From a virus (lineage: Duplodnaviria; Heunggongvirae; Uroviricota; Caudoviricetes): a stretch of 15,450 nt of DNA. The notes below the pieces were generated by a model. The model had not been told where the DNA came from. It did no database searches and saw nothing but the letters and a program-made list of their open reading frames with translations. The translations under genes were made by a program, and so were the position numbers. Of the stretch, positions 8,198 through 12,788 are shown piece by piece. The first letter of the stretch is position 1. The number at the start of each line of letters is the position of its first letter. The stretch lies in the IMG/VR virus record IMGVR_UViG_2541047931_000009. The stretch is one strand, 5' to 3'.

Positions 8198-8205
8198 TTG
8201 GTTAG

Positions 8206-9400
<1,195 letters not shown>

Positions 9401-9417
9401 TTAACGATTCACTGGAT

Positions 9418-10671
9418 ATGCTTGCTGGCTTTTCGCCTGGTTATAAGCAAATAACTGTAGGTGATGATGTTATTAAAATGCCATCCGATAAGGTTGTTAG
9501 CTTCAAACGCGCATCAGGTGCAACATACATTAATAAATCAGGAGTATTAACCGTTGCTGAAGTTGACGAACCGCGATTTGAACGAGAAGGTTTGCTGATT
9601 GAAGGACAAAGAACCAACTATCATCTTAATTCACTTACGCCATCTAAGTGGGGAGCTACAACAAGTGTAACTATAACAGAAAGTGGTGTTGATGAGTTTG
9701 GCTTTACTTATGGGCGGTTTCAAATAAAGGACGAAAAAATTGGGACAAATACGACAATGAATATCGCTGCGGTTTCAGGAGGAAGAGGTGTCGATGTTAC
9801 TGGAACTGAAAAGTATGTTACAACATCATGTCGTGTAAAAAGCGATAGTGCTAATATACAATGTCGTATAAGATTTGAAAGATATGACGGGTCCGCATAT
9901 TTTTATCTGGCAGATGCATATCTTAATATAACAGATATGTCCATTAGGAAAACGGGAGGAGGGGCTGCAAGAATAACCGCCCGAGCGGAGAAAGAATCTA
10001 ATGGATGGATTTATTTCGAGGTTACATATCAATCTGAAGCTATTGATAATATGGTTGGCTCTCAGATCCAAATTGCTCCACCTGTTTCACCTGGAACTTA
10101 TTTGGGCGGGGAATATTTGGATGTTACGACACCACAATTTGAAGGCGGCTCATGCGCATCATCTTTTATCATTTCCGATACAGTTGCATCAACGCGAGCA
10201 AGCGATATTGTTACATTGCCTTGTAAAAATAACATGGCCAGCAAACCTTTAACCTGCATGGTTGAAGTGAATAAAAATTGGTCTATAGCACCAAATTCCG
10301 CGCCTAGAATTTATGATATAACAGGATTTAAAACAAAAGACGACGCTTTTGTTTTTGCATTCAGAAATACAGCAGGTAGTGTAGGAACTCCATATGTTCA
10401 ATTTGGTAATCCAATATCATTTCCACCTGGAAATTACCCAAGAAAGATTATCGCTGTATATAGAATAAAAAGCGATGGCAAGTTTCAGGCTGGCTGCAAT
10501 GGGGTTTTATCAACACCAGCATCAACAACGTGGAAGAGTGTTAGTGGTGCTACAGGTATAAGGATTGGAGGCCAGACTACAGCCGGCTTACGTCATTTAT
10601 TTGGTTATATCAGGAATTTTAGAATATGGCATAAAGAATTAACCGATGCGCAAATGGGAGAGATAATATAA
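9418..10671 (+). CDS. Tail-fibre distal (receptor-binding) segment with C-terminal LamG/concanavalin-like domain; 5-prime truncated by IS5 (417 aa remain)
   Basis: Reading frame is open from the IS5 junction (stop at 9403-9405 lies in the flank); C-terminus ...GLRHLFGYIRNFRIWHKELTDAQMGEII is a typical LamG-domain ending; sits in the tail-fibre position before tfa and pin. Confidence 0.55.
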   Translation: MLAGFSPGYKQITVGDDVIKMPSDKVVSFKRASGATYINKSGVLTVAEVDEPRFEREGLLIEGQRTNYHLNSLTPSKWGATTSVTITESGVDEFGFTYGRFQIKDEKIGTNTTMNIAAVSGGRGVDVTGTEKYVTTSCRVKSDSANIQCRIRFERYDGSAYFYLADAYLNITDMSIRKTGGGAARITARAEKESNGWIYFEVTYQSEAIDNMVGSQIQIAPPVSPGTYLGGEYLDVTTPQFEGGSCASSFIISDTVASTRASDIVTLPCKNNMASKPLTCMVEVNKNWSIAPNSAPRIYDITGFKTKDDAFVFAFRNTAGSVGTPYVQFGNPISFPPGNYPRKIIAVYRIKSDGKFQAGCNGVLSTPASTTWKSVSGATGIRIGGQTTAGLRHLFGYIRNFRIWHKELTDAQMGEII

Positions 10672-10952
10672 TGCGAGATTTAATTATCAAATTCACAGAC
10701 AAGGCCGACTTTTCGGCCTTTATGAAGAGTGCTGGCTATTATGATGACGAGTCGATGCAGGATGATATTCTTATTGACGTGATAGGTAACGTGTACAAAG
10801 AAACCGGAGAACTTACTGAAGATGGCGAGCCGGTATGTGTTAAGGAAGACGGATATTTTGTAAACGTGCGCATCATTAATGATGCAAAAAAATCGTCAAT
10901 ATTCGATAAATACGCGGTTGTTGTTGAGCATCAACTTCGTGGCTGGATGTGA
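10671..10952 (+). CDS. Hypothetical acidic protein, 93 aa, translationally coupled to the fibre gene
   Basis: ATG overlaps the upstream stop (TAATG at 10669-10673); MRDLIIKFTDKADFSAFMKSAGYYDDESMQDD...; no recognisable motif. Confidence 0.5.
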   Translation: MRDLIIKFTDKADFSAFMKSAGYYDDESMQDDILIDVIGNVYKETGELTEDGEPVCVKEDGYFVNVRIINDAKKSSIFDKYAVVVEHQLRGWM

Positions 10953-10961
10953 GGCAGGAAA

Positions 10962-11666
10962 ATGGCTACATCGACAGTAATTCCAGGAGATATCACCAAG
11001 CTAAAGGGGGATGTCAGTAAAGCTAAGGAAGATATTTCATCAATTAGCAGAAAAGTATCAACGCTTCAGACTGAGATGACCAGTGCAAAGCAGGATATCA
11101 GCTCCAGATACACAAAAACTGAAGTTGATAATAAGCTGAAAAACAAAGTGGAAGTGAACGATCTGGAAAGTGGTCGTTATGGCGGAGATTTTTATCCACT
11201 GACAGGTCGTGAAGCGTTTTATTTATGGAATTTGGCCACGACTACAGCGGCGGCAAACCTTTATCTTAATCCTGACCGTGCAATTTCGTCTGTGCTGCGG
11301 TCAACATCGTCTATCCGCTATAAACATTCAGTAGAGACAATAGATTCAGAGCACGCCGATCTCATTTTCAGGATGCGCCCTGTGTGGTACAGGTCGCAAT
11401 GCGAAAATGACAGGCGTGACTGGGGATTCTACGGATTGATTGCCGAGGAAGTAGGAGAAATTGCTCCTCAGTTTGTACACTGGCGACCAGCTAACGAAGA
11501 TGATGCTCCTGAAGCTATTTCCAGCAATGGCCTTGTTGCCGAAGGTGTAATGTACGAACGTCTGGTTGTTCCACTGATTCACCATATCCAGAAACTGACT
11601 GAAAGAGTTGATGAACTTGAGTCAGAATTAAAGTTGTTATTAACTTCCCGAAGCGATATTAGATAA
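10962..11666 (+). CDS. Short fibre-like protein: N-terminal coiled coil plus C-terminal peptidase-S74-like intramolecular chaperone domain, 234 aa
   Basis: Heptad-like N-terminus (DITKLKGDVSKAKEDISSISRKVSTLQTEMTSAKQDIS); C-terminal block SIRYKHS...FRMRPVWY...GFYGLIAEEVGEIAPQFV...YERLVVPLIHHIQKLTERVDELESEL resembles the self-cleaving chaperone domain of endosialidase and T5-type fibres. Confidence 0.6.
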   Translation: MATSTVIPGDITKLKGDVSKAKEDISSISRKVSTLQTEMTSAKQDISSRYTKTEVDNKLKNKVEVNDLESGRYGGDFYPLTGREAFYLWNLATTTAAANLYLNPDRAISSVLRSTSSIRYKHSVETIDSEHADLIFRMRPVWYRSQCENDRRDWGFYGLIAEEVGEIAPQFVHWRPANEDDAPEAISSNGLVAEGVMYERLVVPLIHHIQKLTERVDELESELKLLLTSRSDIR

Positions 11667-11676
11667 AGGAGGAGTA

Positions 11677-11970
11677 ATGGATATAACACCTTTTCTTCAT
11701 GCGCTTTGTGCTGTGGCTGCGCAGACACTGGTTGGTCTTTTTACCGGAAACTGGGCTTATGGGGCGATAGCTGGTTGTACGTTCTTCATTGCGCGTGAAC
11801 ACACCCAGGCAGAATATCGCTGGATTGAAATGTTCGGGCATGGCAAGCGGATTAACATGCCGTGGTGGGGCGGTTTTGATCCGCGTGTTTGGGATGTGGC
11901 AAGCCTGATGGATTTTGCTGTGCCGGTGGTGGCGTGTCTGCTGATCTGGCTGTTGGTTAATCGTGGGTGA
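11677..11970 (+). CDS. Small integral membrane protein, 97 aa, about 3 TM segments, unknown function
   Basis: Strong SD AAGGAGGAG 5 nt before ATG 11677; hydrophobic segments FLHALCAVAAQTLVGLF, WAYGAIAGCTFFIA, LMDFAVPVVACLLIWLLV. Confidence 0.6.
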   Translation: MDITPFLHALCAVAAQTLVGLFTGNWAYGAIAGCTFFIAREHTQAEYRWIEMFGHGKRINMPWWGGFDPRVWDVASLMDFAVPVVACLLIWLLVNRG

Positions 11971-11980
11971 AAAAAGGTGA

Positions 11981-12100
11981 GCTGTATATGCAACGGAGGA
12001 AGAAACCCCGTTGCTGGAAGCCAGGAAAAAGTATCGGGTGTTGCTGAACCGTGTTGATACGTCAACTGCACAGGATATTGAATGGCCAGCACTGCCGTAG
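11981..12100 (+). pseudogene. Relic 3-prime end of a tail-fibre assembly (tfa) gene, last ~39 codons only
   Basis: Frame from 11981 to TAG 12098-12100 reads [39 protein letters not shown], closely matching the recalled lambda Tfa C-terminus (...[29 protein letters not shown]); an in-frame TGA lies at 11978-11980 just upstream. Confidence 0.6.
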
Positions 12101-12197
12101 GGTAAAACATATAAATTCTATAATTAGATGTATCTTTCCATTTACGGCAAGGAAGGGGGCTTGGAAGACGTAAAGCATCTCACACCGAGATTATTTT

Positions 12198-12788
12198 TTA
12201 TATGTCAGGTGTCTGAAGTTTTGCTTTGGCTCTTAAAATGGTTTGCCGCGAGGTTTTGAATTCCCGGGCAATGGCACTTATACTTACACCTGACTTAATC
12301 CGTTCGAATACCACCTGTTTCTGTTCTTCATTTAACACAGGTGGTCGACCAAAACGTTTCCCTGCGCCCCGGGCTCTTACTATCCCGGAATGAGTGCGTT
12401 CAAGTAAAAGGTCTCGTTCAAATTCAGCGACTGCTGAAATTACTTGCATCATCATTTTTCCTGTTGGACTGGTCAGGTCAATGCCCCCCAATGCTAAGCA
12501 ATGCACTCTGATACCTGTTTCGGTCAGTTGTTCCACTGTTTTCCTGATATCCATTGCATTACAACCAAGGCGATCCAATTTTGTCACAATCAATTGATCA
12601 CCACATTTCAGGCGAGCAAGCAACCGGTTAAAACCAGGACGCTCACTGGTTGCTGCTGAGCCGCTAATGTGTTCTTCGATTATTTGCTGAGGTTTGATTT
12701 TAAAACCTGCACTTTCGATTTCCCGGCGTTGATTTTCGGTGGTCTGATCCAGCGTTGATATCCGACAGTAAGCAAAAATTCGAGACAT
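12198..12788 (-). CDS. pinQ: Serine recombinase (resolvase/invertase family), 196 aa
   Basis: N-terminal catalytic region [15 protein letters not shown]... (active-site Ser context), LDRLGCN motif, C-terminal HTH ([20 protein letters not shown]); convergent with the fibre module. Confidence 0.88.

Follow-up and report, generated by a model that had tools for sequence, protein, structure and literature searches.

Genes and features of the locus

The window, by which we mean the whole stretch of DNA analysed (15,450 nt, IMG/VR virus record IMGVR_UViG_2541047931_000009, class Caudoviricetes), was identified as the right end of a defective Qin-type Escherichia coli prophage integrated in ydfJ. 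The genomes of E. coli B/BL21 and E. coli C match positions 9300–12200 at 100 % identity, and in their RefSeq annotation the protein considered here, WP_000235975.1, adjoins pinQ, ydfK and a truncated ydfJ. Its reading frame is complete at 234 aa, with a GAGG Shine–Dalgarno sequence, rated good, 7 nt before the start. A truncation artefact was ruled out, since all homologues share a conserved start and N-terminus. A promoter and terminator scan of positions 9300–12300 gave none above shuffle expectation, and a literature search found no published description of the 234-aa mini-protein. The features of the locus are listed in Table 1.

Table 1. Features in the right-hand part of the window, with strand and basis of assignment
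Feature	Position	Strand	Basis or remark
IS5 element, approximate ends	8203..9402	+	338-aa transposase ORF 8238-9254; terminal inverted repeats 8201-8222 and 9384-9405
Proximal side tail fibre gene, C-terminal 417 codons (GTA_spike_fiber and LamG)	9418..10671	+	Identity to the E. coli C 792-aa protein
93-aa protein (phrog_1361)	10671..10952	+	Start overlaps the fibre gene stop by one base
234-aa ORF, putative minimal distal side-tail-fibre subunit with C-terminal S74 intramolecular chaperone (IMC)	10962..11666	+	RefSeq WP_000235975.1, 'tail fiber domain-containing protein'
N-terminal motif, residues 1-16, MATSTVIPGDITKLKG	10962..11009	+	M[AV]TxT[VIN]IPxDIxxLK, common to all third-gene products
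Coiled coil, residues 11-47	10992..11102	+	AF2 helix 11-47; hydrophobic 3-4 spacing
YTKTEVD motif and conserved ~68-aa tip, residues 48-115 (GGDFYPLTG...TTTAAANLYLNP...VLRSTS)	11103..11306	+	dN/dS; identity to Warwickvirus; ends of longer fibres
S74 intramolecular chaperone/autoprotease domain, residues 116-234	11307..11663	+	Pfam, predicted fold, dyad
Ser116 codon (TCG), predicted nucleophile, scissile bond directly before it	11307..11309	+	Invariance and alignment
Lys121 codon (AAA), predicted general base, 5 residues past Ser116	11322..11324	+	Invariance and MYRF spacing
97-aa hydrophobic membrane protein (phrog_1443)	11677-11970	+	At least 2 strongly hydrophobic stretches
Tail-fibre-assembly (tfa) gene remnant, N-terminus missing	11990-12100	+	
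pinQ invertase gene, intact	12198-12788	-	

The remnant of the proximal fibre gene is identical to residues 376–792 of the intact 792-aa fibre of E. coli C (WP_112843490.1), which carries the Pfam 'prophage tail fibre N-terminal' domain. The IS5 element separates these 417 codons from the N-terminal half of the gene, so that the fibre cassette is orphaned in the window. An IS3 element is found upstream of the fibre region instead in BL21(DE3) and E. coli C; the fibre gene is truncated at that point in the former and intact in the latter. The presence of different IS elements at the locus indicates that insertion sequences have struck it more than once.

The family of the 93-aa protein comprises 186 phage records from six or more groups, among them lambdoid, T5-like and rV5-like phages, Drexlerviridae, Dhillonvirus and Queuovirinae. 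In all 11 phage fibres compared, the 93-aa protein follows the GTA-spike-fibre/LamG C-terminus whether or not a distal gene is present, and this C-terminus (~417 aa) is homologous across them at 40–76 % identity. The protein had no Pfam or NCBIfam match, and its AF2 model (mean pLDDT 52.7) was too poor for a fold search because the alignment contained only sequences at least 81 % identical. We infer that it is an accessory protein or a chaperone. The 93-aa and 234-aa ORFs lie in the same frame, separated by a TGA and 9 nt, and this gap is probably a conserved short ribosome-binding spacer rather than a site of read-through fusion. The same-frame arrangement was also observed in PeterMerian (with a 12-nt spacer), SLUR29, SECphi27, Tritos and IrisVonRoten and not in KarlBarth, while in ev243 it is the 97-aa gene that comes next in the same frame.

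Downstream, the gene for the 97-aa membrane protein comes after the cassette in lambdoid phages and prophages with or without a distal gene (Tritos, ev243, ev207, 4A7), and the Warwickvirus cassette lacks it. Its product could be an exclusion factor, or the gene could be an accessory one expressed by the lysogen. Since pinQ adjoins the cassette, inverted crossover sites were looked for: no convincing inverted-repeat pair was found around the cassette, and a search for the AAACCNNGGTTT core gave one off-target match at chance level. With neither an invertible segment nor a crossover-site pair, and with tfa reduced to a remnant, the S74 cassette appears to have taken the place of an ancestral invertible stf/tfa segment.

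Architecture of the 234-residue protein

The original prediction of an S74-type self-cleaving chaperone domain in the C-terminal part was borne out by sequence and by predicted structure. In Pfam, PF13884 (Peptidase_S74) matched residues 116–172 with 27.5 bits (E 3.9e-6), against a gathering cut-off of 22 bits. Residues 116–234 of the AF2 model form a beta core and a long C-terminal helix (198–233) with block-mean pLDDT of ~77–91. A Foldseek search with the 234-aa model, which bears on the similarity to S74 structures that had been expected, ranked the MyRF ICA domain, the GA-1 IMC and the endoNF IMC first, and the structural matches of the C-terminal domain also include the T5 pb1 domain. A profile of 32 homologues matched the C-terminus of 8hqz_d, a 1076-aa 'L-shaped tail fiber assembly' chain.

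Ser116 and Lys121 were invariant in 32 of the 32 sequences aligned, and in alignments they fall on the S and K of the canonical SDxRxK motif in IrisVonRoten Gp24 and on the dyad of 8hqz_d. Their spacing of five residues is that of S587/K592 in MYRF, a dyad established by mutagenesis (PMC3742440). Taken together, the sequence, the predicted fold and the invariant dyad place the C-terminal domain in the S74 IMC family. Ser116 was assigned as the nucleophile on account of the SDxRxK alignment, its invariance and the MYRF-like spacing. A Ser/Lys dyad was thus located as had been anticipated, with the nucleophile one residue before the 'S-I-R-Y-K' that had been put forward. Self-cleavage is predicted to fall directly before Ser116, and the predicted masses are 26.5 kDa for the precursor, 12.7 kDa for residues 1–115 and 13.9 kDa for residues 116–234.

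The part that would remain after cleavage had been described as about 100 aa of coiled coil with no receptor-binding domain. Its extreme shortness and lack of a recognisable receptor-binding domain were confirmed, at 115 residues with no family match for the tip in Pfam or NCBIfam; the coiled coil proved to be confined to residues 11–47, and about half of the mature part is instead a conserved fibre tip of ~68 aa. Within the coiled coil the 3-4 hydrophobic spacing is unbroken over five heptads (I11 L14 V18 A21 I25 I28 V32 L35 M39 A42 I46). This is the variable part of the protein, and its gaps among homologues are exactly 14 and 21 residues, i.e. whole heptads. Residues 48–115 would form the C-terminus of the mature protein and look strand-rich as judged by eye; the tip has no fold in the AF2 monomer model, with pLDDT below 50 for residues 59–101 and 106–115. 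For residues 1–16 we infer a docking function on the proximal fibre.

One database protein (P0184) is 116 aa long, is 93 % identical to residues 1–116 and has as its last residue the serine before which cleavage is predicted (...VLRSTS). This may be a fragment from the end of a contig or a naturally truncated form without the chaperone domain.

An exhaustive phmmer search returned 3507 relatives of the 234-aa protein. From residue ~44–49 to the C-terminus, the query matched the C-termini of proteins of 539–1243 aa at 51–60 % identity, and from residue ~85 onward it matched hundreds more. An example is the 735-aa protein P0185, a fibre of the lambda-Stf type that starts with the prophage tail-fibre N-terminus and ends in the same tip and chaperone domain (YTKTEV...TTTxxAN...RSTSSxRYK). 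As the tip and IMC close single-chain Stf fibres, the mini-protein is, from these alignments, best described as the detached terminal module of a classical side tail fibre, to which an N-terminal motif and a short coiled coil are added. Short S74 proteins of 183–242 aa were also seen in unrelated lineages, and some of these may be gene fragments.

An exchangeable third gene in lateral-fibre cassettes

Comparison across phages revealed a cassette in the order proximal fibre (with GTA-spike-fibre and LamG C-terminus), 92/93-aa gene and an optional, exchangeable distal gene, common to lambdoid phages and prophages and to virulent Warwickvirus, T5-like, Nonagvirus and Dhillonvirus phages. In the virulent Warwickvirus phages (Drexlerviridae) PeterMerian, SLUR29, SECphi27 and swan01, the order of fibre gene, 92/93-aa gene and S74 gene of ~224–245 aa (a size class represented here by its 231-aa family members) is kept, and the homologues of the 234-aa protein are 54–61 % identical to it. 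The cassette is also carried by the plaque-forming lambdoid phages IdasGreatGrand and PhiR49_1, with a mini-fibre 92–94 % identical. Spacers around the mini-fibre gene in the tail-fibre operon are 9–10 nt, virulent phages included. Among 80 IMG/VR loci, the third slot mostly holds the 234-aa allele, and about one-third have a 346-aa allele; the 234-aa ORF is intact in most of the loci with that allele, and some carry broken copies of 157, 189 or 90 aa.

Other occupants of the third slot are a 351-aa protein in JenP1, the 574-aa Gp24 of IrisVonRoten and a different fibre in KarlBarth. In ev243, ev207 and 4A7 no third gene follows the 92/93-aa gene, and its absence from ev243 and ev207 indicates that the distal subunit is dispensable for that fibre type. 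All third-gene products (234, 346, 351 and 574 aa, and that of KarlBarth too) start with M[AV]TxT[VIN]IPxDIxxLK. An S74 domain is the last element of the 234-, 346-, 351- and 574-aa alleles, with a PF13884 match in Pfam for the last three as well, and the 234-aa allele keeps only the N-terminal motif, the five-heptad coiled coil, the ~68-aa tip and the IMC. The protein had been described as a short stand-alone product; it is indeed a separate ORF, but one that represents a single allele among those occupying the conserved third position of a modular cassette for side tail fibres, and its N-terminal motif is common to longer S74-bearing distal fibres. The 234-aa gene is a conserved and fairly ordinary phage part, a minimal architecture within a known type of modular lateral-fibre cassette.

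In KarlBarth (Dhillonvirus) the third gene is annotated as two overlapping ORFs of 98 and 196 aa in different frames (gp30/gp31, L011 4270-5149), and SDxRxK was not visible in it by eye. Another type of distal fibre, made in two parts and either frameshifted or programmed, may be encoded there.

The closest published description to the mini-fibre cassette is the Gp22/Gp24 model of IrisVonRoten (Bas32, Tequintavirus), in which AlphaFold-Multimer places a T-shaped distal Gp24 on the proximal Gp22 and the lectin-like domain of Gp22 protrudes at its C-terminus (10.1101/2024.09.12.612763). The two loci share the same three-gene order (Gp22, the 92-aa Gp23 and distal Gp24). Gp22 is 76 % identical to the C-terminus of the window's fibre over 419 residues, and Gp23 is homologous to the 93-aa protein at ~40 % identity. 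Gp24 resembles the mini-fibre in its N-terminal motif MVTKTVIPTDITKLK and in its terminal S74 IMC with an SDxRxK dyad, but its mature part is 463 residues long and is predicted to contain two receptor-binding domains, one Gp12-like and one T5-like, against 115 mature residues in the mini-fibre. A proximal fibre similar to that of the window is thus paired with a very different distal protein, yet IdasGreatGrand combines a fibre only 53 % identical to the window's with a mini-fibre 94 % identical. As judged from these identities, proximal and distal parts are shuffled independently by recombination.

The alleles of Tritos (lambdoid, gp21, 346 aa) and JenP1 (Nonagvirus, 351 aa) likewise occupy the slot after the 93-aa gene and end in an S74 domain, and their first 32 residues are 63 % identical to those of the mini-fibre. 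When found in E. coli prophages, the 346/351-aa alleles are followed, like the window's gene, by the 97-aa membrane protein gene and then pin. They differ from the mini-fibre in having a middle region of ~190 aa and an IMC of a different, more distant subtype.

Proposed role and alternative explanations

We consider it probable that the 234-aa protein is a minimal distal fibre subunit, which attaches to the proximal fibre, relies on its own IMC for folding and, after cleavage before Ser116, remains as a 12.7-kDa chain. This mechanism draws on the anatomy of the protein, its comparative context and what is established for the S74 family. Three copies would form a trimer, in which the IMC (residues 116–234) would nucleate folding within its own polypeptide, both of the short, beta-rich tip (~66–115) and of the coiled coil (11–47). 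The Ser116/Lys121 dyad would then cut before Ser116, releasing the 13.9-kDa chaperone, and the mature 12.7-kDa chains would constitute a trimeric stalk with a small knob. The conserved motif MATSTVIPGDITKLK would hold the mature trimer on the end of the proximal fibre, a protein with an Stf-type N-terminus and a GTA-spike-fibre/LamG C-terminus, where the knob might either bind a conserved surface structure or merely cap the fibre. The LamG and GTA-spike-fibre domains of the proximal fibre are more obvious candidates for binding than the small knob. In the window itself the mini-fibre carries no physiological weight, since its cassette lies orphaned within a defective prophage.

The suggestion in the original prediction of a mini-fibre or fibre adaptor comes close to this reading. 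Several observations count against a distal subunit. The tip shows conservation instead of hypervariability, unusual if it determines host range; no receptor-binding domain is recognisable; ev243 and ev207 do without the subunit; and the PeterMerian orthologue was annotated 'putative lateral tail fiber chaperone' by the BASEL authors. Published virion proteomics of swan01, the one such data set found, lists five abundant proteins only and is too shallow to judge the mini-fibre (PMC6563131, Table S5a).

The domain fold and the Ser–Lys dyad with its two residues 5 apart are shared with endoNF (K1F), the GA-1 neck appendage, T5 pb1, DT57C-type LtfA and the MYRF ICA domain. In these proteins the S74 domain lies at the extreme C-terminus of a trimeric fibre; the domain of the mini-fibre is likewise C-terminal, and its trimer is a predicted one. 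Unlike the mini-fibre, endoNF, GA-1, T5 pb1 and LtfA have hundreds of mature residues, forming beta-helix stalks and enzymatic or binding domains. With 115 residues for the chaperone to act on, the mini-fibre is one of the smallest complete cases encountered. Attachment of one fibre protein to another has a precedent in the branched LtfA/LtfB fibres of DT57C, where the second fibre protein is present on the virion only via the tail-anchored first (PMC4728585, PMC10713586). The principle is the same, although attachment of LtfB to LtfA is backed genetically, whereas that of the mini-fibre is proposed from comparison, and DT57C has no 92-aa gene context as far as examined.

The annotation of the PeterMerian orthologue, together with that of 'chaperone of endosialidase' in SECphi27 and Jahat_MG145, raises the alternative of a trans-acting assembly factor, which would dock on the proximal fibre C-terminus, clamp or nucleate that trimer by IMC-driven trimerisation, and then be removed or persist as an inert stub with no host-binding role. 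Such a function would fit the gene position downstream of the fibre gene, the usual place of Tfa-type chaperone genes, as well as the tiny and conserved mature part and the lack of any IMC in the proximal fibre itself (Pfam). It is nevertheless weakened by the nature of the other alleles: the longer ones in the same slot, with the same motif, have bulky mature parts (226 and 463 residues) before their own IMC, and for one of them a T-shaped receptor-binding fibre has been modelled. It is also weakened by the presence of the same proximal fibre type without a third gene in ev243 and ev207, and by the occurrence of the tip and IMC at the end of single-chain fibres, where their target must be their own chain. 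In addition, the 234-aa protein had no Pfam or NCBIfam match to the tail-fibre-assembly family (Tfa/gpU/gp38 types), and in PHROG it matched tail fibre families and others of unknown function. Schwarzer et al. reportedly found in 2007 that the endosialidase chaperone domain supplied in trans fails to rescue folding. Overall, we regard a trans-acting chaperone as unlikely.

A related idea, to which we attach a rather small probability, is that of a detachable trimerisation cap. The protein would dock non-covalently via its N-terminal motif, and the energy gained as its own chaperone-driven trimer folds would fix the register in which a different protein trimerises. If true, this would account for the retention, in virulent and temperate phages alike, of an allele that has no binding domain. 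It would amount to an S74 chaperone acting across polypeptides, which is not known to occur.

The protein might also be a decayed stub, derived from a longer distal fibre by a deletion that took away the receptor-binding domain, and functionless at least in prophages like this one. The interrupted partner fibre gene and the defective state of the Qin-type prophage are consistent with decay, as are the broken copies (157, 189 and 90 aa) at some loci and the longer alleles in the same slot. The pattern of substitution across phages argues otherwise. Between the lambdoid gene and its homologues in virulent Warwickvirus phages (54–58 % identity), synonymous sites are saturated, yet length and all four segments are kept and the tip is still 64–68 % identical. 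In the two comparisons with Warwickvirus for which dS could be estimated, dN/dS was 0.10–0.16 overall, and it was 0.07–0.10 for residues 1–16. Relative to IdasGreatGrand it was 0.23 overall, 0.044 in residues 66–115 (the tip) and 0.13 in the chaperone core. These ratios indicate that the 234-aa gene is under purifying selection, and the ORF is intact in plaque-forming phages as well as in most IMG/VR loci with the allele. A decayed stub is therefore improbable.

Lastly, an exported trimeric decoy had been offered as an option; secreted or released by a lysogen, it would block receptors or incoming phages. Nothing beyond small size and prophage location speaks for it, and it can be set aside almost entirely, since the N-terminus has no hydrophobic, signal-peptide-like segment (the highest 15-aa Kyte–Doolittle window, 1.19, is in the C-terminal domain) and the gene, with its fibre N-terminal motif and fibre tip, is conserved inside the lateral-fibre operon of strictly virulent phages.

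If the reading as a minimal distal fibre subunit is true, the annotations 'chaperone of endosialidase' and 'lateral tail fiber chaperone' are probably misleading for the mini-fibre family. Its 115 mature residues would then place the mini-fibre among the smallest substrates that S74 self-cleaving chaperones have in nature, and it would offer a convenient minimal system in which to study how a chaperone assists the folding of a trimer. The N-terminal motif would act as a plug-in interface through which distal modules are exchanged among lambdoid, Drexlerviridae, T5-like, Queuovirinae and Dhillonvirus phages, and this interface could serve host-range engineering.
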